From the IMG/VR virus record IMGVR_UViG_3300023179_000002, positions 1 through 50,720 of that record: a DNA stretch of 50,720 bases; one strand, given 5' to 3'. Shown piece after piece: positions 1-50,593 of the stretch (the first letter of the stretch is position 1; each line of letters begins with the position of its first letter). Under the pieces are notes generated by a model. The model saw only the letters and a program-made list of their open reading frames with translations. It was not told the origin of the DNA and did not search any database. This stretch comes from a virus (taxonomy: Duplodnaviria; Caudoviricetes). The position numbers and the translations under genes were made by a program.

Positions 1-127
1 AATGTTTCACGTGAAACATTAACCCTTAACCTTTCTGCAAAATAAATTACCCTTTATGGGTAACTATAGGTGCATGGCTTGGCTTTGTATGACTCCTGAT
101 CCATTGGATCATGCGCCTTTGTGCAAG
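1..127. repeat. Terminal direct repeat, copy 1 (circularisation overlap)
   Basis: 1-127 is identical to 50594-50720; 127 nt is a common assembler k-mer length. Confidence 0.95.
3..18. promoter_or_regulatory. parS: parS site 1, perfect chromosomal consensus
   Basis: TGTTTCACGTGAAACA; palindrome extends over 1-20. Confidence 0.85.
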
Positions 128-130
128 GAT

Positions 131-146
131 CGTTGCACGTGAAACA
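131..146. promoter_or_regulatory. parS: parS site 2
   Basis: CGTTGCACGTGAAACA, 1 mismatch to TGTTNCACGTGAAACA. Confidence 0.75.
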
Positions 147-202
147 TGGTGCAGGGTGCATGGTGACTACGTAAAGGGGAGAGGCATAAGGCGCAAGGGG
201 AT

Positions 203-218
203 TGTTTCCCGTGAAACA
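203..218. promoter_or_regulatory. parS: parS site 3
   Basis: TGTTTCCCGTGAAACA, 1 mismatch to consensus. Confidence 0.75.
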
Positions 219-264
219 TGGATCATGGCCCGTGGTTAAGTACTTACTGGAAAAAGGTAAGAGG

Positions 265-280
265 TTAAGGGCCCATTAAC
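265..280. promoter_or_regulatory. CtrA-binding box
   Basis: TTAA-GGGCCCA-TTAAC, exact TTAA-N7-TTAAC, intergenic. Confidence 0.6.
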
Positions 281-339
281 CTTGATTAATATCTCATTAC
301 ATACCGAAAAGGGATAATGATTGTACCTTTTTGGACAAT

Positions 340-660
340 GTTACCTGAAAATAAAAAGTTATTACCTGAAAAAGGTAAGGCCCCTTTTGCCACCATGGAA
401 AGATTAGATATTTCAAAGGATTATTCTATATATCTTTTATATATCATTTTTTTAATAATAATAAAATATTAATAGTATAATATATATATATATATACTAT
501 TTTTATATTGTAAACACAAAAGCAGTTTTTGAAAAACACAAAAATTTATCTTTGTTTTTCAATGGCATAGCCAGGGGGCCTTTGGCAAAAAAAAATTATC
601 CTTATTTTTCTAACAAGTTATGCCGAATATGTTGCATATTTTTTACTTTGTTACCCCTAA
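340..660. other. Very AT-rich non-coding tract, candidate replication origin or unwinding element
   Basis: (TA)n run at about 478-497 and poly-A/T tracts in the largest non-coding region. Confidence 0.45.
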
Positions 661-800
661 CCCTTAATCTCTAACCTTTATTCGGTAGCAAATAACCAAG
701 CGAGGCGCGGAGATTAGTCAATGAACCTTAGAACCTACACAAAGTGTAGCCAGCTTACCCCTGAACATGTATAAAAGCAATTTTATTGCGCAAATTAACC

Positions 801-829
801 TTGACTCATGGGCCATGAACCGTTATATC
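801..829 (+). promoter_or_regulatory. Sigma70-type early promoter
   Basis: TTGACT-N17-TATATC upstream of the first gene; GANTC (803-807) overlaps the -35; TTAACC half-site just upstream. Confidence 0.7.
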
Positions 830-839
830 TATTCACATG

Positions 840-861
840 TAAAGGGCACTTCCGCCCTTTA
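840..861 (+). promoter_or_regulatory. 5' leader hairpin of early transcript
   Basis: TAAAGGGC-ACTTCC-GCCCTTTA. Confidence 0.4.
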
Positions 862-881
862 ATAGAAAGCGAGAGAAAACC

Positions 882-1073
882 ATGGCAAATCAAATCCAAG
901 TTCAAATCCAAGTTCAAATCAAAACAGTCTATGGCAAAGAGGCGATCTATCCTGTATGCGAGCAGGGCAAGCTTTTTGCGGCCTTAACAGGAACCAAAAC
1001 ACTTTCTCGCCAAAACTTGGAAATGATCAAGGCGCTTGGCTTTGAGATCGTTGTGCAGCAAGTGACCCTATAA
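882..1073 (+). CDS. Conserved small phage early protein
   Basis: VYG..IYPVC..A.L.GTKTL pattern typical of phage hypotheticals; purine-rich leader. Confidence 0.75.
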   Translation: MANQIQVQIQVQIKTVYGKEAIYPVCEQGKLFAALTGTKTLSRQNLEMIKALGFEIVVQQVTL

Positions 1074-1103
1074 CCAATTAACCTAACCACGAAAGGAAAG
1101 ACC

Positions 1104-1808
1104 ATGAATCCCGAATCAATCCACCAAGGTTACTATTTTCAATATCCCGCGAAAATACTTCACGTTGAAAAACTGCCCGTGAATCCCGATTCACGTTTCA
1201 CGTTTGAAGGGTATAATTTTCTGGAATTTGTGGGCAAATCCCTGTACATGGATTCCAAAACAGGCAAGCCCAAATTTCAAACGGTTAACAATCATGCCAG
1301 CTATTGGATAGAAGCGGCTCCGGGTGTTTTTGTAAGCCTTGGCGGTTTTTATGACAGAGAAAGGTTTAATGTGGCCATGGCGTTGCATATTCAAGCGGGC
1401 CGCATAGAGTCTTTAATTAAAGAATTTTTGGCGAATGCCGCCGATATACCCGCTTATGAGGCGCGGCAAGCGGCAGCTATAGCCGAGGAAAAAGCGGCGC
1501 AAGCGGCCGAAGATGCACGCCGGGAGGCCGAAGCGGCGAGAAGGGAAGAGGCCCGAAGGCAAGCCAGAGAGGACCAACTAACCAAGGCCCAAGAGTTATT
1601 CAAGGCAGGGGACCGCATACAATGGGAGGAATTCGAGGCGCTTTGCGAGAGGCACGGAATAAAAATAAATATGCGCACAAAGGGAAGCGGCCGCGCCTCG
1701 GTGAAGCTCATCGGCCATGAATCAATGAATGTTTTGACGGGGAGAAGGCCAGATATGGCCCTACGATATGCCAAGGAATTGTTTCAGAAATTGAACCCCA
1801 CAACCTAA
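1104..1808 (+). CDS. Hypothetical early protein with coiled-coil segment
   Basis: 234 aa ORF, AAGGA RBS, E/A/R-rich helix. Confidence 0.75.
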   Translation: MNPESIHQGYYFQYPAKILHVEKLPVNPDSRFTFEGYNFLEFVGKSLYMDSKTGKPKFQTVNNHASYWIEAAPGVFVSLGGFYDRERFNVAMALHIQAGRIESLIKEFLANAADIPAYEARQAAAIAEEKAAQAAEDARREAEAARREEARRQAREDQLTKAQELFKAGDRIQWEEFEALCERHGIKINMRTKGSGRASVKLIGHESMNVLTGRRPDMALRYAKELFQKLNPTT

Positions 1809-1828
1809 CCAAGAAAGGACAAAAACCA

Positions 1829-2128
1829 ATGACAACACACACTAAAGGGCCATGGCATATCGGGCTTAAACCTGGGCCGATTATCTATGATCAGCATGGC
1901 GCACAGATTGTGAGTATGCGCGAGGCGTTATTGCCCGATGACGAAAACATGGTAAACGCCAAGCTAATCGCCGCCGCGCCCGAATTATTAGCCGCGCTGG
2001 TGGAGTTTGAAAATTTGGCTCTCGGGATATATCAGTCCCAGAATTTAGATGAACCGTATGAGGCATCTCTATCAGTCCTTATCGATAAGGCACAAGCAAC
2101 TATAGCACGTGCGCGGGGGCAGTCATGA
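1829..2128 (+). CDS. Conserved phage protein (HTxGPW...NAxLIAAAPEL family)
   Basis: Motifs HTKGPW and NAKLIAAAPELLAAL. Confidence 0.8.
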   Translation: MTTHTKGPWHIGLKPGPIIYDQHGAQIVSMREALLPDDENMVNAKLIAAAPELLAALVEFENLALGIYQSQNLDEPYEASLSVLIDKAQATIARARGQS

Positions 2129-2334
2129 CTTATAAAACGACTGAAAAACAAATTGCGGGCCGCCGCTGGCAATTCATTCGGCGCAAGGGGCACACGGGGG
2201 CCGACTTCACGTGGGCGCGGCTGTATGATGACCGGCGTGGGGTGTGGATAGCCTTATCGGACCCTTGGCCAGGGGCCGATTATCCCTTGCGCGAGCTGAT
2301 ACGGCAAGCCGCGCAGGTATTCCCCGCCGAATAA
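2125..2334 (+). CDS. Hypothetical protein
   Basis: ATGA overlap with the upstream gene. Confidence 0.6.
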   Translation: MTYKTTEKQIAGRRWQFIRRKGHTGADFTWARLYDDRRGVWIALSDPWPGADYPLRELIRQAAQVFPAE

Positions 2335-2371
2335 CCCCTAACCCTAACGAACCACGAAAGCGAGAAAGCCA

Positions 2372-3040
2372 ATGGAACAAACAATTATCAAAAACCGGTA
2401 CACTGGCGAAGTGATGTTAGAAGGCCAGCCACTAGAGTCGATTCTTGGAATGCACAAGCCCTGGCTGTTAGGCAAAGAAGGCGGCAGACGCGCATGTTTG
2501 CGCGGTGCAAACCTCATCGGTGCAAACCTCAGCGGTGCAAGCCTCGGCAGTGCAAACCTCAGCCATGCAAACCTCAGCGGTGCCGACCTGCGCGGTGCCG
2601 ACCTCAGCCATGCAAACCTCAGCGAGGCCGACCTCAGCCATGCAAACCTCAGCGAGGCCGACCTCAGCCATGCAAACCTCAGCGATGCAAGCCTCATCGG
2701 TGCAAACCTCAGCGGTGCCGACCTGCGCGGTGCCGACCTCAGCGAGGCCGACTTGTGCGGTGCGAACATGAACGGTATTAGCTTGGAGGATACCATAGGA
2801 AACAAATTACAGGTAAAAAGCCTGCAACTTGAAAGATACTCAATAGCCTACACAGCTTTAGATTTGCAGATTGGTTGTAAGGTCTACGATATCTCTCAAT
2901 GGTGGGCATTTGATGATATCACAATAGAACAAATGGACAAAGGCGCGCTGGATTGGTGGAAAAAATGGAAACCAATTTTGCAACAAATTATTGAGGCATC
3001 TCCAGCGACACCGACAGGGCGGGGAAAGGCAGGTAAGTGA
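2372..3040 (+). CDS. Pentapeptide-repeat protein
   Basis: About 19 A(N/D/S)Lxx repeats (about 2490-2790) followed by an LQIGC...W C-terminal domain. Confidence 0.9.
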   Translation: MEQTIIKNRYTGEVMLEGQPLESILGMHKPWLLGKEGGRRACLRGANLIGANLSGASLGSANLSHANLSGADLRGADLSHANLSEADLSHANLSEADLSHANLSDASLIGANLSGADLRGADLSEADLCGANMNGISLEDTIGNKLQVKSLQLERYSIAYTALDLQIGCKVYDISQWWAFDDITIEQMDKGALDWWKKWKPILQQIIEASPATPTGRGKAGK

Positions 3041-3081
3041 TGACACAAGCCAAATCGTGGAAAGATAACTATCGCGTAAAT

Positions 3082-3097
3082 TTAACTACTGATTAAC
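3082..3097. promoter_or_regulatory. CtrA-binding box
   Basis: TTAA-CTACTGA-TTAAC; near-copy TTAA-CTACTGA-CTAAC at 3501-3516. Confidence 0.55.
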
Positions 3098-3124
3098 CCC
3101 TAGCAAAGAAAGCGAGAAAGCACC

Positions 3125-3511
3125 ATGTACCCCTTAACCAAAATCAATAAAAAAACAAACGCCTTGCATGTTTGGATACACCCGAAAGACAGGCCGGATT
3201 TGCGCCGCGCCTTGGCCGAATATGGCCTAGCTACGGCATGGGCCGATTTGTGGGATCGTACTCAAGCAAGTGGCGGGATAGCACCAATGCCGCCCGAATT
3301 ATGCGGCCTGACCGATGATCCTTATTGCTTGGCCGAATATGCAAGCCCCCTAGAGGACGGCAATGGGGTGCACGTGACGGGCCGATTGTGGCACTATCCC
3401 AACTATATGCTGGAATGCGCAATGGAAAAGCTGTTGCGGGGCCGAACCGTAGTCTTCGATTGCTGGCATGTGACGCCGGACGAAGGCGAAACGCGCAAAT
3501 TTAACTACTGA
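3125..3511 (+). CDS. Hypothetical protein
   Basis: 128 aa ORF with the shared GAAAGCGAGAAAG leader. Confidence 0.7.
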   Translation: MYPLTKINKKTNALHVWIHPKDRPDLRRALAEYGLATAWADLWDRTQASGGIAPMPPELCGLTDDPYCLAEYASPLEDGNGVHVTGRLWHYPNYMLECAMEKLLRGRTVVFDCWHVTPDEGETRKFNY

Positions 3512-3537
3512 CTAACCCCAGAAAGCGAGAAAACACC

Positions 3538-3810
3538 ATGAGGATATCCAAAACAGAATATCTAGCGCGCGGCGGGGGGAAGAATGAAGCACAATATAAA
3601 ACACGATCAAAAAGCGGTCGCTGGGTGTATCACACAACAGACACGCCGTATGAGAGGGCCTTGAGGGCACAGCTGCGGGCAGCTGAGGCCCTTCAAAGTA
3701 GCGGCATTGGCTTTTATAAAGAGGTGGCAAGTTTTCTGGAAGCCGAACTAAGAGCCAGTAAACAAGGCAATGCTATGAAACACCCTAACCAGGAAAGCCC
3801 CGGACCATGA
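3538..3810 (+). CDS. Hypothetical protein
   Basis: Same leader motif; 90 aa. Confidence 0.65.
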   Translation: MRISKTEYLARGGGKNEAQYKTRSKSGRWVYHTTDTPYERALRAQLRAAEALQSSGIGFYKEVASFLEAELRASKQGNAMKHPNQESPGP

Positions 3811-4166
3811 CTCTTAGAGCACGCAGAGACCCGACCAGAATCGTGATGCTGAAGCGATTGCGGGGCCGATATGAGATATTCTTGCAGACCGAGAGTAAGG
3901 ACCGGCGCCGATATCTGTATGTCAGAGATATACGCTACGGGATCAAGGCGAGGCCGACCATATGCCGGCGCCAATACCATAAAATCTCAGTGATATACCC
4001 TGGGGGGTTTGATCCACCTAGGTATGTGACCCAAGCCCTTGAAACCCTGTTTAAACGGCCCCACGGCCGGCAAACACGGTTTGCGCGGGCCGCTATGGCG
4101 GGGCCGACCGTGGCGAACGTGCAAGCGGCCTATACACCCTTAACCAAGAAGGACCTTGGACCATGA
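3807..4166 (+). CDS. Basic hypothetical protein
   Basis: ATGA overlaps at both ends. Confidence 0.55.
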   Translation: MTLRARRDPTRIVMLKRLRGRYEIFLQTESKDRRRYLYVRDIRYGIKARPTICRRQYHKISVIYPGGFDPPRYVTQALETLFKRPHGRQTRFARAAMAGPTVANVQAAYTPLTKKDLGP

Positions 4167-4465
4167 CTCATTGCTCCCCGATCTGGCACCGAACCGGTGC
4201 CGACACTGGCTCCGGTGCCCCTGTGAAGGGCCGAGGCCGAAAGACGTGGCCCGAGATTATCCGAACGATCCGGCTTTTTCTGTATATGCTCAGCACGTTT
4301 GTGCTGGTCACGGGCATATGGGCCGGTGCCGATCGCGTGGCGACAAGCTACGCGACCTTAACCAAGGCCGTTGTCCGGCAAACTCACTGCGCCGAGCAAT
4401 GGGCCGAGGTTTTAATGCCCTTGGCGAAGCGGAGCCGATCAACCCAAACTGTAAGAAAGGACTAA
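4163..4465 (+). CDS. Hypothetical membrane protein
   Basis: AGGA RBS, one hydrophobic segment LFLYMLSTFVLVTGIWAG. Confidence 0.55.
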   Translation: MTHCSPIWHRTGADTGSGAPVKGRGRKTWPEIIRTIRLFLYMLSTFVLVTGIWAGADRVATSYATLTKAVVRQTHCAEQWAEVLMPLAKRSRSTQTVRKD

Positions 4466-4470
4466 GGACC

Positions 4471-4980
4471 ATGAAACTTTATTTTATTGACCATGCCACT
4501 GAGCAGGGCCGACGCCGACAATGGACAACGACCCTGCGCCGATTGAAACAAATCTATGCAGAGCTGGCCGACGACCAGAAAGCCGATGCCGTGGCCGAGG
4601 CCTACGAGTGCCCCCGCACGACGAAAAAAATGCAGGAGCAGTGGGCCGATTTTCTTGGTCGGTTACAGGCCGCGCCGAAGGAGATGCCCGCCGACGCCGA
4701 TCTTGCCGTGGTTCCTCAGGCGCCGGTGCCGCGCCTCCCCTATCGCGCCCTCGTGTCGGCACGTTACGATATGCGATGGACCATGGACCAATATCAATGG
4801 CCCGTGGAGTTGGTGATCACCGATAAGCAGACCGGCGCCGTTTATTCTTTCGGCAAGGATCTCGATGAAGCCCGGCGCGTGTACCAGCGATTGCAAAAAA
4901 CTTTTCGTGGCAGCCACCGAGTTTTCGAGGCCGAAGTGGCAAAAGTTTTGGAAGAGAGGAACCATGTTAACCAAAAATAG
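4471..4980 (+). CDS. Hypothetical protein (start trimmed to MKLYFID)
   Basis: AAGGA RBS before ATG 4471, in frame with ORF 4156..4980. Confidence 0.65.
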   Translation: MKLYFIDHATEQGRRRQWTTTLRRLKQIYAELADDQKADAVAEAYECPRTTKKMQEQWADFLGRLQAAPKEMPADADLAVVPQAPVPRLPYRALVSARYDMRWTMDQYQWPVELVITDKQTGAVYSFGKDLDEARRVYQRLQKTFRGSHRVFEAEVAKVLEERNHVNQK

Positions 4981-4981
4981 A

Positions 4982-5010
4982 TTGACACACACCGACCGTT
5001 GCCGTACCAT
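4982..5010 (+). promoter_or_regulatory. Sigma70 promoter upstream of the tRNA-like/CysRS unit
   Basis: TTGACA-N17-TACCAT. Confidence 0.7.
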
Positions 5011-5035
5011 CCAGCCCCAGAAAGGTAGAAAGACC

Positions 5036-5266
5036 ATGGACCATGAATCTCGCGCCGACATGCCCGACTTTAACGCATGGGCTTTCGCTATTTTTCGCCT
5101 GACATTCGGAGAAAAAGAAGACGAGCAGGTGGTGATTGACCGCCTGAAGCTGGCGCTTGCGGCAGCTTATAGCCGAGGCTTCGCGCATGCTGTGGCCGGT
5201 GCCGACCTCCCTAAAAAAGCAAAACCTCGGAAACCCCACAAGCCCAAGCCGCGGGGGAAAAAATGA
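5036..5266 (+). CDS. Hypothetical protein with basic tail
   Basis: AAAGG leader then ATG 5036. Confidence 0.6.
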   Translation: MDHESRADMPDFNAWAFAIFRLTFGEKEDEQVVIDRLKLALAAAYSRGFAHAVAGADLPKKAKPRKPHKPKPRGKK

Positions 5267-5274
5267 CAAGATAT

Positions 5275-5357
5275 GTGCATGTAGCCCAGTTGGTTGAGGC
5301 GAATCCTTGTGCGCACAGGGAGGAAAGATACAGGTTCGAGTCCTGTCATGCACACCA
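5275..5357 (+). tRNA. tRNA-like gene with aberrant anticodon arm (positional anticodon GTG, His-like)
   Basis: Acceptor GTGCATG/CATGCAC + A + CCA; D arm GCC..TGG..GGC; T arm ACAGG-TTCGAGT-CCTGT; anticodon arm non-canonical. Confidence 0.8.
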
Positions 5358-5375
5358 CAACAAAGGAGAGAACCA

Positions 5376-5591
5376 ATGACCGCAACACAATTCTTAGATT
5401 ACATTCACAAGGCGGGAAGTGTTCCCGAAAAGCTTGAAGCTGTGGCTGAATACCTGAATGATTACCCAAATACACCCGTATTTGACCTGAAGTGCATGCT
5501 CCGGGCTGCAGCGTACGCTTCTCGTAGAGGTATTAGAAAATACTACCCTAGCGCAGAGCCGTCACCCCAGTACGATGACGATGGAGCCTAG
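5376..5591 (+). CDS. Hypothetical protein
   Basis: AAGGAG RBS before ATG 5376. Confidence 0.65.
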   Translation: MTATQFLDYIHKAGSVPEKLEAVAEYLNDYPNTPVFDLKCMLRAAAYASRRGIRKYYPSAEPSPQYDDDGA

Positions 5592-5794
5592 GACATGGCG
5601 ATCTGCGATGTTTGCGCAGCACAAAACAAGTGTACGTGGCCCGAAGGGCATGTATGCACGTGGTGGTGCGGCCACTGTGACCATTGCGGTTTGGACGATC
5701 AATCAGTTTGCGACGAGAGCGATTGGCAGTGGCCCAAGGGATCTCGGAACTGGGGACAAAGGGAGTTTTAACCGTGAACACACAGGAGGCTGAA

Positions 5795-6193
5795 ATGCCC
5801 TTGGACATTGCGCCCTTAGACCCGAACGATCCGGCAGTCATCGACGAAGTGATGTTTGATGTTGTTCAGCCATTGACCATTGATCCTGATACATTGAAAG
5901 AGCTCATGGATATGGGTATCGTAGATACAGGTTTCTCGCTTCAGGACAAAGAAGCGTGTCTTAGCTTGCGTTTTTGTGCCCTAGAGTGGGAATACGTCTC
6001 CGCGGAACGTTCCCCGATCCCTGAGCATGGAGGGGCGGTCATCTGGCCTGGTTACAGTGAAATTGTAACCTATGAGATACAGCCCTCTCTTGATACACTG
6101 GAGAGGCTGGGCTTTAAGATAACGGCAAAAGGCCTTGGGTCCATTGAGAATTACAAAGAAACATTAGAGGCGGAGGCTGCGTATGGAATCTAA
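5795..6193 (+). CDS. Acidic hypothetical protein
   Basis: GGAGG RBS before ATG 5795. Confidence 0.65.
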   Translation: MPLDIAPLDPNDPAVIDEVMFDVVQPLTIDPDTLKELMDMGIVDTGFSLQDKEACLSLRFCALEWEYVSAERSPIPEHGGAVIWPGYSEIVTYEIQPSLDTLERLGFKITAKGLGSIENYKETLEAEAAYGI

Positions 6194-7577
6194 AGATATT
6201 TTTCTCTACAACACGCTGACGCGGCAAAAAGAAACATTCAAACCTGTGGATGATAAAAACGTGCGCATGTATGTGTGCGGTCCCACCGTGTATGATCGCG
6301 CCCACCTGGGCAATGCGCGGCCGGTGGTGGTGTTTGATACGCTGTTCAGGTTGCTGCGCCACAAATATGGCCACAACCATGTCACCTATGCCCGCAACAT
6401 TACCGATGTTGATGATAAAATTATGGCCCGCGCCCATGAAACGGGTGAGAGCATTGAAAGCCTGACCACACGCACCACGCAGGCCTATCATGATGATATG
6501 GGTGCGCTGAATGCACTGCCCCCCACCATCGAGCCGCGCGCCACAGGCCACATTGCCGAGATGATTGCGCTGAATGAGGTATTGATTGCAAAAGGTCATG
6601 CTTATGTGGCCGAAGGTCATGTGCTTTTTCATGTGCCCAGCATGAAAAATTATGGCCAGCTTTCACGCCGCAGCCGCGATGAGCTGATTGCCGGCGCGCG
6701 GGTGGATGTGGCACCCTATAAAAAAGATGCGGCCGATTTTGTGTTGTGGAAACCCAGCGCGCCCGATCAACCAGGCTGGGAAAGTCCGTGGGGTCGTGGC
6801 CGGCCTGGCTGGCACATTGAATGTTCGGCCATGGCGCGCAAACATTTGGGCACGACGTTTGATATTCATGGCGGCGGGCTCGATCTTATTTTTCCCCATC
6901 ATGAAAATGAAATTGCACAAAGCTGCTGCGCGCATGATGGCGCGCCACTGGCCCGTGTGTGGATGCATAACGGATTTCTGACCATCAATCATGATAAAAT
7001 GAGTAAATCGCTGGGCAATTTTTTTACGGTGAATGATCTGTTGCAGAAACATCATGGAGAAGTGATACGCCTGGCGCTTTTGTCGGCGCATTATCGCCAA
7101 CCGCTGGATTTTTCTGAAGAAAAGCTGCAAGAATGCAAGGTGACGCTGGAAAAATGGTACAGCGCTCTTGGCAACTGCACAGAGATTGAAAACGAGTATG
7201 CTGATTTAAGCCAGCGCCACCAACTGCAGGTTTTTGGCCCCGCTGAAGAAGCGCTGTGTGATGATTTGAACACGCCACAAGCCATGACAGAATTAAACCA
7301 ACTTGCTGCAAAAATATTTAAGTTGCCTCTTGGCTCTGATGAACGAAAAAAATTGTCTCACACCCTCAGATACTCAGCTCAATTCCTTGGGCTGCTGTAT
7401 TGGACGATTGACAGACCTGTACTTGATGCCCTGCTTCGAGAGTATGCTCAGGCGCGATACAACAAAGATTTTGCCAAGGTTGACCAATTACGCGCTGAGA
7501 TTCAAAAGCTGGGCGTGCAAATTGAGGATGGCCCCAAGGGCACATATTCACTTCGGCCATTTTGGAGATCGTTTTGA
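6183..7577 (+). CDS. cysS: Cysteinyl-tRNA synthetase
   Basis: MYVCGPTVY, HLGN (HIGH), RNITDVDDK, DFVLWK, GRPGWHIECSAM, DIHGGG.DL.FPHHENE, KMSKS, DDLNTP and C-terminal anticodon-binding domain. Confidence 0.97.
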   Translation: MESKDIFLYNTLTRQKETFKPVDDKNVRMYVCGPTVYDRAHLGNARPVVVFDTLFRLLRHKYGHNHVTYARNITDVDDKIMARAHETGESIESLTTRTTQAYHDDMGALNALPPTIEPRATGHIAEMIALNEVLIAKGHAYVAEGHVLFHVPSMKNYGQLSRRSRDELIAGARVDVAPYKKDAADFVLWKPSAPDQPGWESPWGRGRPGWHIECSAMARKHLGTTFDIHGGGLDLIFPHHENEIAQSCCAHDGAPLARVWMHNGFLTINHDKMSKSLGNFFTVNDLLQKHHGEVIRLALLSAHYRQPLDFSEEKLQECKVTLEKWYSALGNCTEIENEYADLSQRHQLQVFGPAEEALCDDLNTPQAMTELNQLAAKIFKLPLGSDERKKLSHTLRYSAQFLGLLYWTIDRPVLDALLREYAQARYNKDFAKVDQLRAEIQKLGVQIEDGPKGTYSLRPFWRSF

Positions 7578-7852
7578 CTGACATCGCCGCCGCAATGCTC
7601 GCCGTGTCGCTGATGACTGGCCTTCCCGTCCCGCCTCCGCCCATCGTGGTTGAGACGCGCGAGGAAATGCCTTGCGCTGGCGAAGCAAAAAGGCCAGTCG
7701 GCTTGTACTGCATGGGCCATGTTTGGTTGCGCGATGACGCAACACAAGCTGTCGCTGTGCATGAGATGGTTCACCATTACCAACATCACTACCACGCCGA
7801 GATGTTGGAATTACATGCGTATGAACTTGAACGGAAATGGAGCAGACAATGA
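7574..7852 (+). CDS. Small zincin-like (HExxH) protein
   Basis: VHEMVHH plus downstream ExxAY; hydrophobic N-terminus; TTG start overlapping the cysS stop. Confidence 0.6.
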   Translation: MTDIAAAMLAVSLMTGLPVPPPPIVVETREEMPCAGEAKRPVGLYCMGHVWLRDDATQAVAVHEMVHHYQHHYHAEMLELHAYELERKWSRQ

Positions 7853-8064
7853 AAATCAAGGAAATAATCTCACAGCACCGTCGCGACTTTACTGCCGTGT
7901 ACGAATGCGAACACTGCGGGCGCACAGAACGTGGTAGTGGCTACGATGATGACAACTTCCACAGAAATGTTATACCTGCGAAAGTTTGCAGGTCATGCGG
8001 CAAAACAGCGGCAGATAACTATAGGCCGATGGCAACGAAATACGCAGCGCATGAGGTAGTGTGA
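7849..8064 (+). CDS. Small zinc-ribbon protein
   Basis: RRDF..YECEHCG ... CRSCG. Confidence 0.75.
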   Translation: MKIKEIISQHRRDFTAVYECEHCGRTERGSGYDDDNFHRNVIPAKVCRSCGKTAADNYRPMATKYAAHEVV

Positions 8065-11657: not shown

Positions 11658-14159
11658 ATGGGCACCCCTATGGCCTTTGATCCTCGAACTGCGCCCGAAG
11701 GAAAAAGGGTATACTGTCACGAGTGTCTCATGTGGATTAGTGACCACATGCGGAAAGACCTCTATGCAGCGTATCGAACCAACAGTGCAGGAAAAGGACT
11801 TTATCTCCCCGTGGAGGAAAAAGTCACTAACAGACTTCTTTCCGAACATATCGCGGGGGAAAAACCCATAGGACAATATCTTTTGCTGCCACCTGAACGC
11901 AATACAGTTCGGGTGGCAGTGATCGATATTGACGATAAAAAAAGACAAAAGGATTGGAAAGACCTGTGCGGGATTGCGGCGCATATTTGCGACACGCTAG
12001 GGTCTGCCTATGCTCCATGGGTATGCCGCTCTGGCTCTGGTCACGGTATCCATATATGGTTTTTCTGGCCCTCTCCGCAGCGGGCAGTTTATGTGCGACA
12101 AGCGTTACGCCCTGTTGTGGACAAGATGCGGGTTAAATACGATGTAAGCATTGACTTGTTTCCCGCGCAGGATGAAGCAGCCCAGCTTGGGAACCTTGTC
12201 GCCGTACCTTTCTCTCGCAAGTCGCGGTATATAACTAATTTGGGCACCGGCGATGTCCATAGTGACCTTTCGACATGGGAAGGCCCTCTGCCACGTTACT
12301 CGGCAGATCTGTATGAACAACAGATCATGGACCTTGATTCCTTGATCGAGGACGCTGGAAAAGGCCTACCGTCAGAGAATGATGTTGCCTACGGCCCTGT
12401 GGACATACCCACAATTAAAGAGGCTCTCTCGTTTGTTTCGAACGATGACTACGCTGTCTGGATACGGGTAGGACTAGCTTTGAAAACAGCAGCGGGTAGC
12501 GGGCAGCTTACAGATGAGGAAGGGAAAGAGATTTGGGATTCATGGTCGAAGAACAGCCCTAAGTACGATGCTTGGAGAATTAACTACGACTGGAACAGGT
12601 TTAATGAGAGACGCAGTGGCGTAACGCTGGGCACCGTCTGGCACTATGCCTATCGCGGCGGATGGAAGGGCCCTGCACCGTCTGCCGTGGCTAATGACAC
12701 ACCTTCGGAGGCGCCTTCTCCCCCTGTGATGTCAGCAGCACAGGGGCAAAACAAAAACCCGACATCTTCCGGTGGGTCTGAAAATATACAAGAAGTGAAC
12801 CGAGATCATTTTGTGGCACGGGAAGGAAGTAAGTATTTTATATTCAAGGAAGTTTTGGACGATGATTTTAAACGGCAGTCCGTTGTGAGGTTGACCAAGC
12901 AAGATTTTCTAATTGAGTTAGCGAATAAAATGGAGCTGTCGTATACAAAGACCGGACGACTAAGCAGTGAACCCTTGGCAGAGGCGTGGTTAAAAAGCCC
13001 CCACCGGCGGCAGTACGAGAGTATTGTTTTCAACCCTGAGGGAGCTCCGGAAAACACCTACAACCTGTGGCGTGGATTTACGGTTAAGCCTTCCTCCGAA
13101 GGCTCTTGCGAATTGTTTAAAGAGCATGTGCTCAACAACATCTGCCGAGGGGATGAGAACGTCTATAACTACGTCATGAATTGGTGTGCGTTTACGATAC
13201 AGTTCCCTGGCACTCCGATTGGAACTGCTCTTGTTCTACGAGGTGGACAAGGCACAGGCAAAGGAACCTTAGCTAAGGTTATTGGTAATTTGTTCGGCCA
13301 GCACTTTATTCACGCCTCTAATAAAAACACCGTTTTTGGCCGATTTAATGCGTGCCTCCACGACTGCATCCTTCTATTTCTGGACGAAGCGTATTGGGCG
13401 GGGGCGAAGGCAGAACAATCAACTCTTAAAGCTTTAATCACCGAGCCTACGCTTCAAATTGAAGGTAAGAATAGAGACACGATCACGACCAAAAATATGG
13501 TGCACACCATCATCGCCACCAATAATGATTGGTCGGTTCCCACTGACTTGGACGATCGTCGTTTCCTAACGCTTCATGTCGCAGACACACGGGCCAGAGA
13601 CTACACCTACTTTAACGCACTATACGATCAGTTGAAACGAGGCGGCTACTCGCGGTTGTTGTACGAACTGCAACAGCGTCAAGTTTCGGAGTTTCAGCCA
13701 GCGGCCATTCCAGGTACACCAGAATTGTGGGTACAAAAAAGAAACTCACTATCAAGTATCGGAGAATGGTGGCTGGAGCGATTGCAGCAAGGGACACCTG
13801 GTTCTAGCATTAAAGATTGGGATGTTGCTGTTCCTGTTACGGCTATGTACCACGATTATGTAGACTACTGCGAGCTGGCAAAAATTCGTTCGACCGGAAC
13901 AAGTACTTGGTTTATGCGGAAGCTTTCAGAGATGATCCAACACAGGGAGATCGCTGACCGACGAACTTTAACAGAGGGGATTGTTACCCGAAAAGGTGTG
14001 CTTGAGCCTGGCACACGCCAAGTGTTTTGGCGACTGCCTTCATTAAAAGAATGCCGTGAGATTTTTGCGTTACAGGCCAAGGCAGAGATCATCTGGGACA
14101 GTATCCCTGAAACTGTCGCCCAAAAGAAAAGGAGAGAGTCCGATGAAATACTTATCTAA
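11658..14159 (+). CDS. Primase-helicase (AEP-like + PriCT-2 + SF3/D5-like helicase)
   Basis: IDID and SGSGHGIHIW primase motifs; DDY..W..VG.AL..W..WS PriCT-2; GGQGTGKG Walker A, FLDE Walker B. Confidence 0.9.
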   Translation: MGTPMAFDPRTAPEGKRVYCHECLMWISDHMRKDLYAAYRTNSAGKGLYLPVEEKVTNRLLSEHIAGEKPIGQYLLLPPERNTVRVAVIDIDDKKRQKDWKDLCGIAAHICDTLGSAYAPWVCRSGSGHGIHIWFFWPSPQRAVYVRQALRPVVDKMRVKYDVSIDLFPAQDEAAQLGNLVAVPFSRKSRYITNLGTGDVHSDLSTWEGPLPRYSADLYEQQIMDLDSLIEDAGKGLPSENDVAYGPVDIPTIKEALSFVSNDDYAVWIRVGLALKTAAGSGQLTDEEGKEIWDSWSKNSPKYDAWRINYDWNRFNERRSGVTLGTVWHYAYRGGWKGPAPSAVANDTPSEAPSPPVMSAAQGQNKNPTSSGGSENIQEVNRDHFVAREGSKYFIFKEVLDDDFKRQSVVRLTKQDFLIELANKMELSYTKTGRLSSEPLAEAWLKSPHRRQYESIVFNPEGAPENTYNLWRGFTVKPSSEGSCELFKEHVLNNICRGDENVYNYVMNWCAFTIQFPGTPIGTALVLRGGQGTGKGTLAKVIGNLFGQHFIHASNKNTVFGRFNACLHDCILLFLDEAYWAGAKAEQSTLKALITEPTLQIEGKNRDTITTKNMVHTIIATNNDWSVPTDLDDRRFLTLHVADTRARDYTYFNALYDQLKRGGYSRLLYELQQRQVSEFQPAAIPGTPELWVQKRNSLSSIGEWWLERLQQGTPGSSIKDWDVAVPVTAMYHDYVDYCELAKIRSTGTSTWFMRKLSEMIQHREIADRRTLTEGIVTRKGVLEPGTRQVFWRLPSLKECREIFALQAKAEIIWDSIPETVAQKKRRESDEILI

Positions 14160-14258: not shown

Positions 14259-14528
14259 ATGAACGATACGGAACGAACCGCGGCAAAAATCCTGCATGAC
14301 CTGGAAGAAAGATCCGCACTCGGCCCTGCTCAAAAATCCATACTTATACAAAACCACATCTCGGAACGTGTTGAAGAGGCGCGGGATCAGATTTGTTTTA
14401 TGCTGTATTCTCGCCTTCAGGTCGAAAAAGTATATCGGCTTGAAGCCAAAGTCCCTGCACCTGAATCCCTATATTTTTCTCGTGCCCTAGAAGAGCTTAT
14501 CGAGTTTATAAAAAGTTCTCCCGTTTAA
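14259..14528 (+). CDS. Hypothetical protein
   Basis: 89 aa ORF within the operon. Confidence 0.5.
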   Translation: MNDTERTAAKILHDLEERSALGPAQKSILIQNHISERVEEARDQICFMLYSRLQVEKVYRLEAKVPAPESLYFSRALEELIEFIKSSPV

Positions 14529-14560
14529 CTTTCTTTTAACCATAGCGCGTGTATATATCC
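14525..14560 (+). promoter_or_regulatory. CtrA box with downstream -10-like element
   Basis: TTAA-CTTTCTT-TTAAC (14525-14540), then TATATA, ahead of the polymerase gene block. Confidence 0.6.
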
Positions 14561-46698: not shown

Positions 46699-47074
46699 CT
46701 TGCGCGAGTGGCGTGCTCATTGGAAGCGCCTTCGTGCTCGGCAAAATTTCTATGACCACGGATCCTGACTGATCAATCGTTAAACCATCGGCTTGATCAA
46801 TCGTCCTCTCCACAACTTTACCATAGCCACGTTCAAGCAACGCCGTCGCGGCGTTCAAACGCACTTGATCCTGCGGCGCATTACGCATCACATCCACGAT
46901 GACTTCGATCGCCTCTTCCGTGTACTGTCGCGACAAGCGCGTTGCCGTTGCACGGTCGTATAGCTTGGATAATGATCCTGCTTCAGGTCTAAAAGCGGTG
47001 GAGTACCCATTAAAAATGGGTGAGTTCTTTCCGAAGCGTGACATGGGCAAAGCTACCGCACTGCCGCTGACCAT
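46643..47074 (-). CDS. Putative terminase small subunit
   Basis: R.YT.EAI..I..M...RL.AA..LL.RGYGK pattern; early position in the late operon. Confidence 0.6.
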   Translation of the reverse strand: MVSGSAVALPMSRFGKNSPIFNGYSTAFRPEAGSLSKLYDRATATRLSRQYTEEAIEVIVDVMRNAPQDQVRLNAATALLERGYGKVVERTIDQADGLTIDQSGSVVIEILPSTKALPMSTPLAQVEPPRDEPFVEPAENENI

Positions 47075-47556
47075 TACTCAGTCGGCTGTAGTTGGGCTGG
47101 CTTCGAGTATACCACAACATTTTGCCCAAGTAAAGAAAGCAAAATAGCCACCCGCTCTTTACTTGTCCATTGGCAGACGCCTTCACGCCCTTCGAAGGGA
47201 CCTTCTTTGAACTGAAGCTTTTGTCCTGGCTTGAAAGCCAGCGCATCTTCAATTCTTTCCACCACAGCATTCATCGCTTTCATGTTATCAATCCATACGT
47301 CAGGAACACGAGAGGGTGTATCTTCCCCGCTCAGGAGGATACGACTGACCCCTCGCGTGTAAGAGATAGGGCGCCACCGCTGATTCTCAAGACTGTATTC
47401 CGCAAACAAGTACCGCGGAAACAAGGGACGAATACGCTCCCCTTCCGCAAACACCTCTCTCAACATCGGCAAAAGCACTTGATATCCTTGCTTTTCAAGC
47501 AATATTTTTACGAGGCTTTCACTGGATGGTTTGGTCTGGACAACGAGCCAAGGCAT
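47074..47556 (-). CDS. NusG/RfaH-family antiterminator
   Basis: W.VVQTKP..E, PLFPRYLF, I..TRGV; KOW F.PGQ....GPF.G..G. Confidence 0.9.
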   Translation of the reverse strand: MPWLVVQTKPSSESLVKILLEKQGYQVLLPMLREVFAEGERIRPLFPRYLFAEYSLENQRWRPISYTRGVSRILLSGEDTPSRVPDVWIDNMKAMNAVVERIEDALAFKPGQKLQFKEGPFEGREGVCQWTSKERVAILLSLLGQNVVVYSKPAQLQPTE

Positions 47557-47632
47557 GTAGCGATATCTTTACCATGATTGGTCGACACATTTCCACTTGT
47601 TTTTGTGGTTTGAAACAAATAATATTGTCCGC

Positions 47633-47899
47633 ATGTCCAAGAAAAAATCTGTCAGCCTCTCCGTAGGGCGTGGTGAAAAGCTTCCTGTCAGTAAAGGCGC
47701 TGGCCTTACTGAAAAGGGCCGTGAAAAATATAACCGTGAGACCGGATCTAATCTCAAGGCACCCGCGCCATCGCCAAAAACCGAGGCGGACAAGGGGCGC
47801 AAGGCATCTTTCTGCGCTCGCATGAAGGGTGTGGTCGAAAAATCCAAGGGCGAGGCTCCAAGAGCCAAGGCTGCCTTGAAACGCTGGAAATGTTCCTAA
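47633..47899 (+). CDS. Small basic conserved phage protein (DUF6321-like)
   Basis: GLT.KGR..YNR.TGSNLKAP...RKASFCARM.G...AL.RW.C. Confidence 0.75.
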   Translation: MSKKKSVSLSVGRGEKLPVSKGAGLTEKGREKYNRETGSNLKAPAPSPKTEADKGRKASFCARMKGVVEKSKGEAPRAKAALKRWKCS

Positions 47900-47954
47900 T
47901 CAGGTCGTTTTGTTATAGTATATTAGTATAAATCTATATCAATTATACTATTTC

Positions 47955-48170
47955 CTATAAAGAAAAGGGTTTATGCTTCTTGTTGTAGGCGTTCCAATTA
48001 TCCAACGCGGCCTCACGACACTCGTGATATTCCTTCTGGCTGGGGGCAAATTGTGCCGCTAACTGCCAAGCTTCCTGCGCTTCTTTGCGTTTATCCTGTG
48101 CCTCAGCGCGAATAGCGATCTCTTTCGCCCGCTTGAACTCAGTCTCTTTGAAGGTGAGTGGTGTGGCCAT
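47955..48170 (-). CDS. Hypothetical protein
   Basis: 71 aa helical ORF divergent from the methyltransferase. Confidence 0.5.
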   Translation of the reverse strand: MATPLTFKETEFKRAKEIAIRAEAQDKRKEAQEAWQLAAQFAPSQKEYHECREAALDNWNAYNKKHKPFSL

Positions 48171-48208
48171 GACTACCCCGCAGGGTCAGTAGCGTTTCAT
48201 AGGCAAAT

Positions 48209-48302
48209 ATTGCTGTCAAGGAGAATCTTGTTGACACGCCAGTGGGGCGTATGGTTGCATGCCCCTGTGACGATCTATGTTTGAACCCCTGAAAAAGTCA
48301 AT
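48209..48302 (+). repeat. 94 bp direct repeat, copy 1 (promoter plus dead 5' end of the gcrA-like gene)
   Basis: 12 mismatches versus 49362-49455 by hand alignment. Confidence 0.9.
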
Positions 48303-49281
48303 GGACCCTGACGCAGCATTGAAGCCGGGCAAGGAGCGGACGCGGGCACCACGCAATCGGACGCTTATCGTATTCCACAAAGAAGTGCAGTCCCTGCTCG
48401 GCGAAACTATCCATCTGCGTGCGCCGGCTGCGGTCGAAGCTCTCAAAAGCAAAGTTATCCATCAAGATTTATTCGAGGCTTTACCGTTTCTACCCGATTC
48501 ATTTATCGACCTACTGGTGGTCGACCCCCCGTACAATCTAAATAAGGCGTTCGGTGATCAAAAATTCAAGAAGACCAGTGCGAAGACCTATGAGCAATGG
48601 CTAGATAGCTGGATAGCCCCCCTTATTCGGTGCCTGACGCCCACCGCCTCGGTTTATGTATGCTGCGACTGGCAGTCATCTAGTGCCGTACAGGCGGTTG
48701 TCCAGAAACACCTGATCGTACGCAATCGCATAACCTGGGAACGAGAAAAAGGGCGGGGCGCACTTCGTAATTGGAAAAACTCGTCCGAAGACATCTGGTT
48801 TTGCACGCGCTCGAACGATTTCTATTTTGACGTTGAGGCGGTAAAGCTTAAGAGAAAGGTTATTGCCCCTTACCGCGACGCCAGTGGCGCCCCAAAGGAC
48901 TGGGAAGAGACAAGTGGCGGCAATTTCCGACTTACACATCCATCGAACCTATGGACTGATATTTCAATACCATTCTGGTCAATGCCAGAAAATACCGATC
49001 ACCCTACTCAGAAGCCAGAAAAGCTGATAGCCAAACTTATATTAGCAAGCTCTAGGCCTGGTGATTTTGTGTTCGATCCGTTCTTAGGTTCTGGCTCGAC
49101 ATGCGTCGCTGCGAAAAAGCTCGGTCGTAACTATGGCGGGATCGAGATTGATGCCGAGTATTGTCAGTGGGCCGTAAAACGGCTGCGCCTAGCTGACCAG
49201 GATCGAAGCATTCAGGGGTATCACGATGGATATTTCTGGGAGCGCAACTCACTGTCTGACCAAAAACTAGGAAAGGCTTAG
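48277..49281 (+). CDS. Beta-class DNA amino-methyltransferase (N6_N4_Mtase)
   Basis: DPPYN motif IV precedes HPTQKPEKL and DPFLGSG motif I. Confidence 0.92.
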   Translation: MFEPLKKSMDPDAALKPGKERTRAPRNRTLIVFHKEVQSLLGETIHLRAPAAVEALKSKVIHQDLFEALPFLPDSFIDLLVVDPPYNLNKAFGDQKFKKTSAKTYEQWLDSWIAPLIRCLTPTASVYVCCDWQSSSAVQAVVQKHLIVRNRITWEREKGRGALRNWKNSSEDIWFCTRSNDFYFDVEAVKLKRKVIAPYRDASGAPKDWEETSGGNFRLTHPSNLWTDISIPFWSMPENTDHPTQKPEKLIAKLILASSRPGDFVFDPFLGSGSTCVAAKKLGRNYGGIEIDAEYCQWAVKRLRLADQDRSIQGYHDGYFWERNSLSDQKLGKA

Positions 49282-49361
49282 CAGGTCGTCGCCAAGCAAA
49301 AGGGGTTCTTTAATGACTAAGACGGTCGCCGACCTGCTGACGTTTATATCCGAATACAACC

Positions 49362-49455
49362 ATTGCTGTCAGGGAGAATCTTGTTGACACGCCAGTGGGG
49401 CGTATGGTGTCATGTCGCCATGACAACTTATGTTTGGCCCCCTGAAAAAGTCAAT
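49362..49455 (+). repeat. 94 bp direct repeat, copy 2 (promoter and start of the gcrA-like gene)
   Basis: GAATC-TTGTTGACA...TATGGT, then ATG 49420. Confidence 0.9.
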
Positions 49456-49851
49456 ATCCTCACCAAGCTGTGGGGAACCCTCCCCGCCGCGGACATCGGC
49501 AAGCGCCTAGGTTGCACACGCAATGCCGTGATCGGCAAGGCAAACAGGTTGGGCCTCAAAAATCTTCGTTCTGACGGAGACTACCGCCTCTTCAATGTAC
49601 CCATGGATCAACGTCCCCCGCGCCCTGTCTACGAAAAACTTCGTGCGGAAGCCAACCATAAGGTCTTTGCTTTTATGGCCAAACATAAAATCACGGGCAA
49701 AGAGATTGCTCGTTTCCTAGGCCTTAGCGAGGCAACTGTTTCCCAAGCAAAAACGGGCCGGCACCCTCTACCTCTGACTCATTGTCAAAAGATTCTTGAT
49801 CCAATGGGCCAAGAACAGCTTGCCAAGGCCCTGGGCCTTGCGGTAAAGTAG
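49420..49851 (+). CDS. GcrA-like N-terminal domain fused to an XRE-type HTH
   Basis: W..E.V..L.KLW....A..IG.RLG.TRNAVIGK.NRLGL; second HTH ITGKEIARFLGLSEATVSQ. Confidence 0.85.
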   Translation: MTTYVWPPEKVNILTKLWGTLPAADIGKRLGCTRNAVIGKANRLGLKNLRSDGDYRLFNVPMDQRPPRPVYEKLRAEANHKVFAFMAKHKITGKEIARFLGLSEATVSQAKTGRHPLPLTHCQKILDPMGQEQLAKALGLAVK

Positions 49852-50040
49852 CCTTAGCCGCCTTATCGATTGCAAGGCGACCGCGGCGACATAGCACCTT
49901 GCAGGAGCGTGCTGGACGCACCTTAGTGGCCTGAAATGGTTTTTTGCCATTGACGGCCACCAGTCGCGCCAAAGTGTGGGCCTTGTATGGCCGCAGCGAT
50001 GGCGCATAGTTCATCTTGCATGGTATATCCATGCAAACGG

Positions 50041-50072
50041 GCAGTGGCGGCTCATCACCGCCACTGCTTTTT
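50041..50072 (+). terminator. Intrinsic terminator
   Basis: GCAGTGGCGG-N7-CCGCCACTGC-TTTTT. Confidence 0.8.
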
Positions 50073-50118
50073 CAGTAGAAATACTGCGACAACTCAACTC
50101 AAAGTACTGTTGCCGGAA

Positions 50119-50421
50119 TTAAAATACTGCTGGCTGCCCTTTTAGAGGCAGCTTCAGGTGCAACAACTCACCCGCATCGACCACACCCCCACGCCCATCA
50201 GGCGTCACGACCAGTACCGTAAAGGTCTCTTTCTCCGCACCAGCCCAGAACATAACCACGTTGCCAGAGTGGCTCAGACCACTCACCACGGGCTCTTCTT
50301 TAAATTCCTTGCGTAGGGTACCAGCCAGCTCCTTTGCATCACCACACATGGGCTGCGCCAACGCTGTGCTGGCTACAGAGAACATGGTCCCAAGGGCAAC
50401 GGCTAGTCTCATCACACGCAT
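50119..50421 (-). CDS. Small secreted/periplasmic protein
   Basis: Signal peptide ending ALA-QP; C...L...F.E.P...G pattern. Confidence 0.65.
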   Translation of the reverse strand: MRVMRLAVALGTMFSVASTALAQPMCGDAKELAGTLRKEFKEEPVVSGLSHSGNVVMFWAGAEKETFTVLVVTPDGRGGVVDAGELLHLKLPLKGQPAVF

Positions 50422-50593
50422 AGCGTCTCATGATCCAAGGCTCGGGGTCAAGGGTAATTTTGTAGTGAGAAATTAACTTTTTTGAAAAATTGGGTCGCAC
50501 CAAAAATGGTATGGGACCCAGCATCCGAAGGAGGGTACCCCTTATTTTGGCACATACCCCCCTTAAAAAGGTAAGGACTTACTGTTTTTCGGC

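Follow-up and report, generated by a model that had tools for sequence, protein, structure and literature searches.

The window analysed here is the whole 50,720-nucleotide (nt) IMG/VR record IMGVR_UViG_3300023179_000002, a complete, circularly assembled podovirus from lake water, and our subject is a cluster of host-type parS sites in its main control region together with three CtrA-type boxes. Bases 1-127 are identical to 50594-50720 (a 127-nt terminal direct repeat), so that the genome is a 50,593-bp circle or is circularly permuted; the record carries direct terminal repeats (DTR) with a CheckV completeness of 100%, and a contig from run X1 extends 169 nt leftward beyond base 1. All three parS sites and one of the boxes lie in a 1,053-bp non-coding gap, which separates a minus-strand open reading frame (ORF; 50119-50421) from the plus-strand early genes. 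The features of the gap, and the two boxes beyond it, are:

50422..50593, no strand: left part of the gap, GC 0.45; continues as 1-881 (GC 0.36); no ORF kept
1..127, no strand: assembly overlap, the copy of 50594-50720, with the X1 contig running across base 1
3..18, no strand: parS-1, a perfect TGTTTCACGTGAAACA with 0 mismatches, directly followed by TTAACCCTTAACC
131..146, no strand: parS-2, CGTTGCACGTGAAACA, with 2 mismatches, or 1 against the N-consensus; inside the 38-nt direct repeat 127-164 (family D1)
203..218, no strand: parS-3, TGTTTCCCGTGAAACA, with 1 mismatch; inside the second 38-nt repeat copy, 199-236
238..379, no strand: iteron-like repeats, AAGTACTTACTGGAAAAAGGTAAG at 238-261 and AAGTTATTACCTGAAAAAGGTAAG at 356-379, with TTACCTGAAAA present twice (families D4 and D15)
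263..281, no strand: CtrA-type box A, the palindrome GGTTAA-N7-TTAACC, then TTGATT
420..510, no strand: extremely AT-rich tract with (TA)n
795..835, plus strand: putative early promoter, found by eye, TTAACC-TTGACT-17 nt-TATATC, with GACTC overlapping the -35
3082..3098, plus strand: CtrA-type box B, TTAACTACTGATTAACC, in an 84-nt gap 5' of the gene at 3125
14525..14541, plus strand: CtrA-type box C, TTAACTTTCTTTTAACC(AT), starting in the last codons of ORF 14259-14528 and heading a 207-nt gap before the polymerase block

The 16-bp palindrome consensus tGTTNCACGTGAAACa is what we take to be chromosomal-type parS. A scan of the whole window for TGTTTCACGTGAAACA with up to three mismatches, with 100 shuffles as control, returned four matches against 0.27 expected, and none of the 100 shuffles reached four. 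The match at 50596 is the overlap copy, which leaves three distinct sites, all within 216 bp and with none elsewhere in the genome; as sequence matches, all three predicted sites fit the palindrome at one mismatch or fewer, and the 38-nt repeats that hold parS-2 and parS-3 are spaced 72 nt apart. The scan was checked on five alphaproteobacterial genomes (4-6 Mb), where it recovered 2-4 sites per genome clustered within 0.5-3.6 kb, and on phi29 (NC_011048), where it recovered four perfect sites and one degenerate site, matching the five reported for that phage (PMC2731898). In four of the five alphaproteobacterial genomes the perfect parS-1 16-mer is identical to chromosomal sites. The phage sites form a small local cluster above chance, as chromosomal-type parS does; the cluster is non-random, and its three sites within 216 bp are as many as a whole alphaproteobacterial chromosome carries. 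An earlier note on this DNA, made from its letters and ORFs, had listed a parS cluster close to a CtrA box and an early promoter, and these counts bear the cluster out.

The CtrA-site dyad TTAA-N7-TTAA (the consensus as given in PMC9437464) is fitted by five matches in the window, where 1.11 are expected; three carry the TTAACC extension, and three are intergenic or at a gene end. The extended form TTAA-N7-TTAACC has four matches at three sites against 0.09 expected, since box A reads it on the minus strand as well as on the early (plus) strand, on which all three boxes read it. When intergenic DNA alone was shuffled (3,342 nt, each segment alone), four extended matches were reached in 0 of 20,000 shuffles and three core boxes in 12 of 20,000. 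Among occurrences of TTAACC/GGTTAA, 9 of 36 are intergenic, compared with 7% of the genome. The three extended boxes are thus non-random, and the CtrA boxes that the earlier note had named at 265 (within box A), 3082 and 14525 all hold up.

Several other features of the gap point to a control region. We regard it as the likely origin of replication from the combination of iteron-like repeats, which are candidate initiator-binding sites, the AT-rich tract, a candidate DNA-unwinding element, and the phage's own primase-helicase (11658..14159), the likely replication initiator, which would act here. Cumulative GC skew is lowest at the junction, a signal confounded by gene orientation. DnaA boxes are at chance level in the window (13 versus 10.5 expected), with none in the gap. 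The early promoter that the earlier note had placed at 801 is visible by eye as TTGACT-17-TATATC, although a consensus scan does not call it. A pac site was considered and rejected, the contig start being arbitrary on a circular assembly.

Gene families were assigned by Pfam and PHROGs scans of 71 ORFs, and the genome divides into two large blocks:

882-23489, plus strand: early and replication block, with a pentapeptide protein, cysteinyl-tRNA synthetase (CysRS), a Lar-like protein, Pam3 gp32-34-like proteins, AEP primase with D5-type helicase, PolA, SNF2 helicase and a glycosyltransferase-methyltransferase
6183-7577, plus strand: CysRS, full-length (TIGR00435, 497 bits versus a cut-off of 340)
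11658..14159, plus strand: AEP primase and DUF5906/D5-type helicase
23609-47556, minus strand: virion and lysis block, with P22-type portal, large terminase, coat, scaffold, SU10-type adaptor, tail-collar fibres, ejection proteins and amidase
47074..47556, minus strand: NusG/RfaH-like antiterminator, heading the late (virion and lysis) genes

Between these blocks lie a methyltransferase gene (48277-49281), a GcrA-like gene (49420-49851), the small minus-strand ORF 50119-50421 and the gap. The scans of the 71 ORFs recognised no integrase, recombinase, ParA, ParB or CtrA-like gene, and no CI-like repressor module or plasmid replication initiator. Six-frame searches of the window likewise gave no match to integrase/resolvase, to ParB_N at E<=1, to ParA/AAA_31 at E<=0.001, or to Trans_reg_C (the OmpR/CtrA-type domain) and the CtrA model at E<=1. 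With neither ParA nor ParB, integrase or a CtrA-like gene turning up in the phage, host proteins would have to read the sites. The window phage is a virulent-type, P22-like podovirus whose freshwater host is probably alphaproteobacterial.

The assignment of the host rests on CysRS affinity and the CtrA-type boxes, which together indicate that it is probably alphaproteobacterial. The best CysRS matches (56-58% identity) are to Dongia, Reyranella, Nisaea and Magnetospirillum, all Alphaproteobacteria. A quick CysRS tree of the phage and 79 of 80 loci, in which three rows on a long branch were probably mis-extracted, places the phage with a Rhodospirillales-like group at a weak Shimodaira-Hasegawa-like approximate likelihood ratio (SH-aLRT) of 81, and weakly suggests a Rhodospirillales-like host. 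In groups other than Caulobacterales and Hyphomicrobiales, what CtrA is reported to govern is motility and not the cell cycle (PMC9437464), so that with such a host 'cell-cycle hijack', the label of the earlier note, may be the wrong one. The major capsid protein had no match at E<=1e-20 in 401 sampled alphaproteobacterial genomes, which is uninformative for the host. Upstream of the CysRS gene by 830 nt is a tRNA-like gene (5275-5357, plus strand) that scores 42.4 bits against Rfam tRNA (gathering score 29) and has an encoded CCA end; its anticodon arm is 24 nt long versus 17 in the model, and ARAGORN reads a four-base anticodon, gcgc.

We tentatively favour a design like that of phi29, in which lysis is deferred and the genome retained through gating by a host regulator and host ParB acting on unintegrated phage DNA; this reading is plausible while falling short of probable, and it draws on analogy. 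The gap between the divergent transcription units would serve as a mimic of the host centromere, set beside a palindromic CtrA-type box, the origin and the early promoter, and the two further boxes would head later gene blocks of the early strand. Host ParB and host CtrA may both read their predicted sites. The host developmental response regulator would then gate early transcription of the phage, its replication, or both, with either sign, and host ParB at the parS cluster would hold, position or partition the unintegrated genome until the state of the regulator changes. What the sequence shows is the sites, their counts against chance and the failure to find any of these gene families; binding by the host proteins, the assignment of the origin, and deferral or partition are inferred from it. 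Since the sites are non-random, lie in or next to the control region and have no readers of the phage's own that we could find, it is reasonable, as part of the earlier note implies, that the phage senses the state of the host by way of CtrA and makes use of host ParB, with precedents in phi29 and the CtrA-box phages; dormancy, another part of that note, lacks genetic support. Its statement that the phage rides the segregation apparatus while dormant loses that half, as neither a repressor nor a plasmid-maintenance gene was found.

A broader version, which we hold to be possible but doubtful, is that an alphaproteobacterial phage converged on the two-part strategy of phi29, with CtrA boxes at the origin region and the early operons holding back or releasing the lytic programme as the developmental or motility state of the host dictates, and a centromere mimic giving the unintegrated genome inheritance in the meantime through host ParB together with ParA or polar anchors; borrowing of host ParB would then be a general phage trick.

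A number of observations weigh against deferral and retention by host CtrA and ParB. At the sites themselves, the mismatch of parS-3 falls in the central CACGTG; consensus promoter scans give no clear -10/-35 partner at any of the three boxes; box B is only 26 nt from the next start codon; and the gap holds one full CtrA box, versus 12 reported in the 1.3-kb gap of vB_BsubS-Delta (PMC9437464). Among the 71 ORFs nothing was recognised that would maintain a quiescent state, whether a repressor or another gene. The nearest relatives of the methyltransferase are in beta- and gammaproteobacteria, and GcrA-type DNA-binding domains are weakly matched in Bacillus and Vibrio phages too, so that these two genes say little about the host. 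In the one other run in which the phage occurs (X2), the listed pieces miss 1-521, and the parS cluster and box A are thus not shown to be covered. Among five phages with a common virion module, no genome has parS (at two mismatches or fewer), none has the GcrA domain, and one has an extended CtrA box. A parS-like site occurs in 1 of 89 loci with a GcrA-type domain (554 kb), and an extended box in 2 of 89.

The last two counts come from a survey of relatives, in which no close relative of the phage turned up. INPHARED phages gave only distant structural matches, with the GcrA-like protein unmatched at 1e-5, and a single-sequence search of IMG/VR did not find a relative of the portal. A search with a portal alignment did find relatives (80 of 590 kept), which have at most 10 of the 71 proteins in common with the window, all of them virion genes; the portals of the five phages with the common virion module are 44-47% identical. 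The 89 loci, 9 viral and 80 metagenomic, have only the GcrA-type domain in common with the window and match no other window protein at 1e-6. As parS, the boxes and the GcrA domain are rarely found together in relatives, the five elements of the earlier note are not a travelling set; co-occurrence, the check that it had proposed, speaks against it in the relatives where it could be tried.

An alternative that fits much of the same evidence is that the parS sites act as a ParB decoy in a purely lytic takeover: amplified sites would soak up host ParB and disturb segregation, control of the division site or control of replication, with the CtrA boxes merely tuning early promoters. The phage does look virulent, having a primase-helicase, PolA, an SNF2 helicase and an RfaH-like antiterminator, with no integrase or repressor found, and because one phage genome carries as many parS as a host chromosome, replication would make phage sites outnumber those of the host many-fold. 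The sequence does not separate titration from partition. We nevertheless consider a decoy unlikely, given that the phi29 sites are reported to serve segregation of the genome into the prespore (PMC2731898) and that placement beside a putative origin would mimic chromosomes.

The sites could also be read by the phage itself, the palindromes and TTAACC boxes being operators or origin elements for an early protein of its own or for the primase-helicase, with a likeness to host sites that is convergent. Most of the small early plus-strand ORFs match no family, and the sites do lie among the iteron-like repeats and the AT-rich tract in a gap where TTAACC half-sites are abundant. Nevertheless, the likeness extends to two separate host motifs, over 16 and 17 specified positions, the parS-1 16-mer is that of chromosomal sites in four of the five alphaproteobacteria checked, and neither a ParB_N nor an OmpR/CtrA-type DNA-binding domain was found in the six-frame searches at E<=1. 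Moreover, at least 137 IMG/VR stretches contain the perfect 16-mer, compared with 2 for its reversed sequence as control, a difference that suggests a host reader common to them. Reading by the phage alone is, on this evidence, decidedly unlikely.

The parS-bearing viral loci are of interest in their own right. The 80 examined have no genes in common with the window beyond weak helicase matches, and 25 of the 80 fetched with a perfect parS (L094-L173) carry at least two parS-like sites, often in non-coding DNA. Among the 40 records followed, which were the longer or multi-site ones, ParB_N is present in 2, ParA/AAA_31 in none and a protein-primed polymerase of the phi29 type in 7. Borrowing of host ParB by phages seems to reach well beyond the phi29 family. 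One unrelated record (L160, from IMG/VR fragment G051; 6.5 kb, GC 60%) has GGTTAA-N7-TTAA 23 nt from a perfect parS; the pair is intergenic at 1462-1516, just upstream of the minus-strand gene 1218-1460 and downstream of another. Its genes include a phage methylase (a DNA methyltransferase lies nearby), a lysozyme-like gene and a replication initiator.

The earlier note had gone further and joined parS, the CtrA boxes, GANTC-marked promoters, a phage GcrA and a CcrM-like methylase into a single cell-cycle hijack device. All five do lie close together, within ~3.15 kb from 48277 through the junction to ~835, in keeping with the block of about 3.3 kb that it described. The features on which the methylation arm of this device depends are:

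48277..49281, plus strand: beta-class N6/N4 DNA methyltransferase (PF01555, E 4e-43; 334 aa)
49420..49851, plus strand: GcrA-like gene, with a GcrA-type DNA-binding domain at residues 5-46 and an XRE/Cro-like helix-turn-helix (HTH) at ~87-127 (143-residue reading from 49420)
48208..48305, plus strand: promoter/leader block, copy 1, with the dyad TGTCAAGGAGAATCTTGTTGACA at 48214-48236
49361..49458, plus strand: promoter/leader block, copy 2, with the dyad TGTCAGGGAGAATCTTGTTGACA at 49367-49389

A methyltransferase gene is indeed present at 48277, and it has PF01555 and the beta-class motif order in common with GANTC methyltransferases of the CcrM/M.HinfI type, but its likeness to CcrM does not go beyond this. 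The protein scores 100.1 bits against the CcrM equivalog NF050803, for which the cut-off is 830, and lacks the C-terminal extension, the alignment ending near residue 304 of 334. Only 64 residues align to the CcrM structure (PDB 6pbd; best stretch 241-304), and other beta-class enzymes are matched better (8urk, 139 bits). Its relatives at 70-75% identity are in Methylococcus, Sulfuriferula, Gallionella, Hymenobacter and Accumulibacter, the last of these (72% identical) being named M.DraI by its source, and the closest are widespread orphan or restriction-modification methylases. We therefore rejected CcrM as its identity on the model score, the short structural alignment and the non-alphaproteobacterial relatives. 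The enzyme is best explained as an ordinary orphan methylase, which probably protects the phage from restriction.

The gene at 49420 in turn encodes the DNA-binding domain of GcrA but not its function. The protein matches PF07750 at 38.1 bits (cut-off 26.9) over profile positions 3-50 of 155 only, and aligns to GcrA residues 6-49 (PDB 5yiu/7ye1, E 1e-6) with the core TRNAVIGK..RLGL kept. Against the GcrA equivalog NF050816 it reaches 35.9 bits, versus a cut-off of 280, over model positions 3-81 of 173. Its N-terminal DNA-binding domain is thus that of GcrA (the Caulobacter sigma-70 cofactor) and of the GcrA homologues of phiCbK-like phages (PMC4647560, PMC9437464), whereas full-length GcrA and its sigma-70 domain-2-binding part are not represented: the C-terminal half gives HTH-family matches, and a second HTH takes the place of the sigma-70-interacting domain. 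Because this C-terminal domain is what brings GcrA to promoters (PMC4647560), a protein without it cannot act as GcrA does. An exhaustive search of 1.84 billion cluster representatives gave 961 matches at E<=0.001; almost every one was to the small N-terminal domain, many of them in proteins with several repeats, and below E 1e-30 there was no full-length relative, only the protein itself. It is best explained as a phage DNA-binding regulator with a borrowed GcrA DNA-binding fold, of which the second HTH could be a repressor.

The two genes have a feature in common that counts for the proposed circuit, namely a block of ~95 nt duplicated 5' of each, in which two TTGACA hexamers placed back to back around GAATC make up a 23-bp dyad that occurs only at these two places. 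The leaders of the duplicated blocks fold no better than shuffles. The sequence in the dyad, AGAATCT/AGATTCT, departs from YGAKTCK and is placed 5' of the -35, whereas sites at GcrA-activated promoters are reported near -20 or at +2 to +30 (PMC4647560); it may instead be an operator, possibly for the GcrA-like protein itself. The methylase and the GcrA-like gene are best explained as a separate two-gene module with a duplicated promoter/operator, and they do not, on this explanation, tie the phage to the CcrM/GcrA clock.

The distribution of GANTC favours the circuit in one respect, since the motif is avoided in genes: 93 sites versus 131.7 +/- 8.4 in synonymous-codon shuffles (z -4.6), with 0 of 300 shuffles as low. 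Dinucleotide shuffles agree (101 observed, 179 expected), while a maximal-order Markov model shows only mild depletion (100 versus 118), which is why we judged avoidance on the synonymous shuffles. By the same synonymous measure CCGG (z -5.6), TGCGCA (z -3.5) and ATGCAT (z -3.0) are avoided in genes as well, as is expected for restriction avoidance; TTTAAA (z 0.05) and GATC are not. The avoidance of GANTC but not TTTAAA is suggestive only with regard to the specificity of the methylase, and the pattern of avoided sites suggests which host restriction systems the phage meets. GANTC sites do exist at 803, 48223 and 49376, as the earlier note had it, yet 8 of 100 sites are intergenic compared with 7% of the genome, so there is no marking of promoters beyond chance. 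With the methylase falling far short of the CcrM model, the GcrA-like protein without its sigma-70 half, and the context and position of GANTC wrong, the five-part circuit on a GcrA/CcrM methylation axis breaks down, and we regard it as highly unlikely.

A temperate phage kept as a low-copy plasmid prophage, like P1 or N15, would use parS for stable inheritance, and a circular assembly with centromere-like sites and no integrase found is what it would look like. We rejected this candidate as very remote, since the partition and immunity genes were not found: ParA, ParB, a CI-like repressor module and a plasmid replication initiator all went undetected, the capsid protein was not found in the 401 sampled alphaproteobacterial genomes (E<=1e-20), and the phage reaches a contig depth of ~200x in one of the lake runs, as would be expected of a bloom of free or replicating phage, although little can be proved from depth. 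Chance or an assembly artefact is practically negligible, for although two of the five TTAA-N7-TTAA matches (23036 and 37328) lie inside genes at about the level of chance, the shuffle statistics for parS and the boxes stand against it, as does the presence of the same sequence in lake-water/freshwater runs of two studies, one of them possibly the source. No RNA run was among those listed with the sequence, and the X2 contigs show zero differences over 1-20000 wherever they lie.

Two features of the rest of the genome may be added. Between the late genes and the gap, 47557-50421 (~3 kb) holds small transcription units of alternating orientation, in the order DUF6321 (plus), a 71-aa ORF (minus), the methylase and GcrA-like genes (plus) and a 100-aa ORF (minus), with a 55-nt tract of 22% GC at 47900-47954. 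A purine-rich leader, AGAAAGCGAGA, was found by a scan at one mismatch or fewer in seven copies versus 0.79 expected:

864, 2355, 3107, 3520, 10812 and 14590, plus strand, and 35215, minus strand: purine-rich leader AGAAAGCGAGA

It ends ~4-7 nt 5' of a start codon in six of the seven copies, the copy at 14590 being unchecked, and probably serves as an unusual motif for ribosome binding or translational enhancement.

Orphan host-type parS on a phage (phi29) and phages with CtrA boxes are both already known; the new element is their pairing in one alphaproteobacterial phage. We found no paper that pairs host-type parS with CtrA boxes or that describes such parS sites in alphaproteobacterial phages, the supplementary tables of PMC9437464 aside. 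Deferral and retention as we propose them overlap with the published idea of CtrA 'lytic deferment', for which, according to its authors, how the phage genome survives is unknown (Mascolo et al. 2022, PMC9437464); neither parS nor ParB occurs in the text of that paper. If host ParB and CtrA do bind, the phage joins the work on segregation protein and master regulator in phi29 with the lytic-deferment hypothesis, and the parS cluster would be the missing mechanism of genome survival, a candidate that can be tested in vitro. The window also calls for caution with phage annotations, as a 'GcrA' or a 'methyltransferase' is not automatically a cell-cycle gene; here the two belong neither to full-length GcrA nor to CcrM.

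Among known systems, P1 and N15 have their own ParAB/SopAB, their own centromeres and repressors, whereas the window phage has centromere-like sites only and is not a phage-plasmid with its own partition system. SGI1 (PMC10954446) resembles it in carrying partition sites whose binding protein is encoded elsewhere, but borrows the parABS of an IncC plasmid and not that of a chromosome. In alphaproteobacterial phages with CtrA boxes (the 'LPEG' phages), CtrA is reported to bind sites in gap regions and to repress or activate phage genes (PMC9437464); like the window phage, they have TTAA-N7-TTAA in intergenic DNA, including a large divergent gap, have no lysogeny genes, and have host CtrA as the proposed reader. 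They differ in the number of boxes, with 12 in the gap of vB_BsubS-Delta and three here, one of them in the gap, and the window phage is a podovirus. The closest parallel in design is phi29, in which host Spo0J and Spo0A are reported to act on the parS sites and the Spo0A boxes: Spo0J on phage parS helps to move the genome into the prespore, and the Spo0A boxes shut early promoters and replication (PMC2731898). Both phi29 and the window phage are virulent podoviruses without ParA or ParB that carry several parS of the host-chromosome type, and where phi29 has sites for a developmental master response regulator of the host near promoters and replication elements, the window phage has CtrA-type boxes as predicted counterparts. 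Phi29 persists without integrating. The two differ in regulator (Spo0A versus a CtrA-type box), in host phylum, in replication (protein-primed PolB in phi29, AEP primase and PolA here) and in the placement of parS, which here are packed closely together in the non-coding control region, while four of the five in phi29 are inside annotated genes and the fifth is just after gene 16. The spore as a destination belongs to phi29 only, and the two have in common host-type parS without a ParB of their own.

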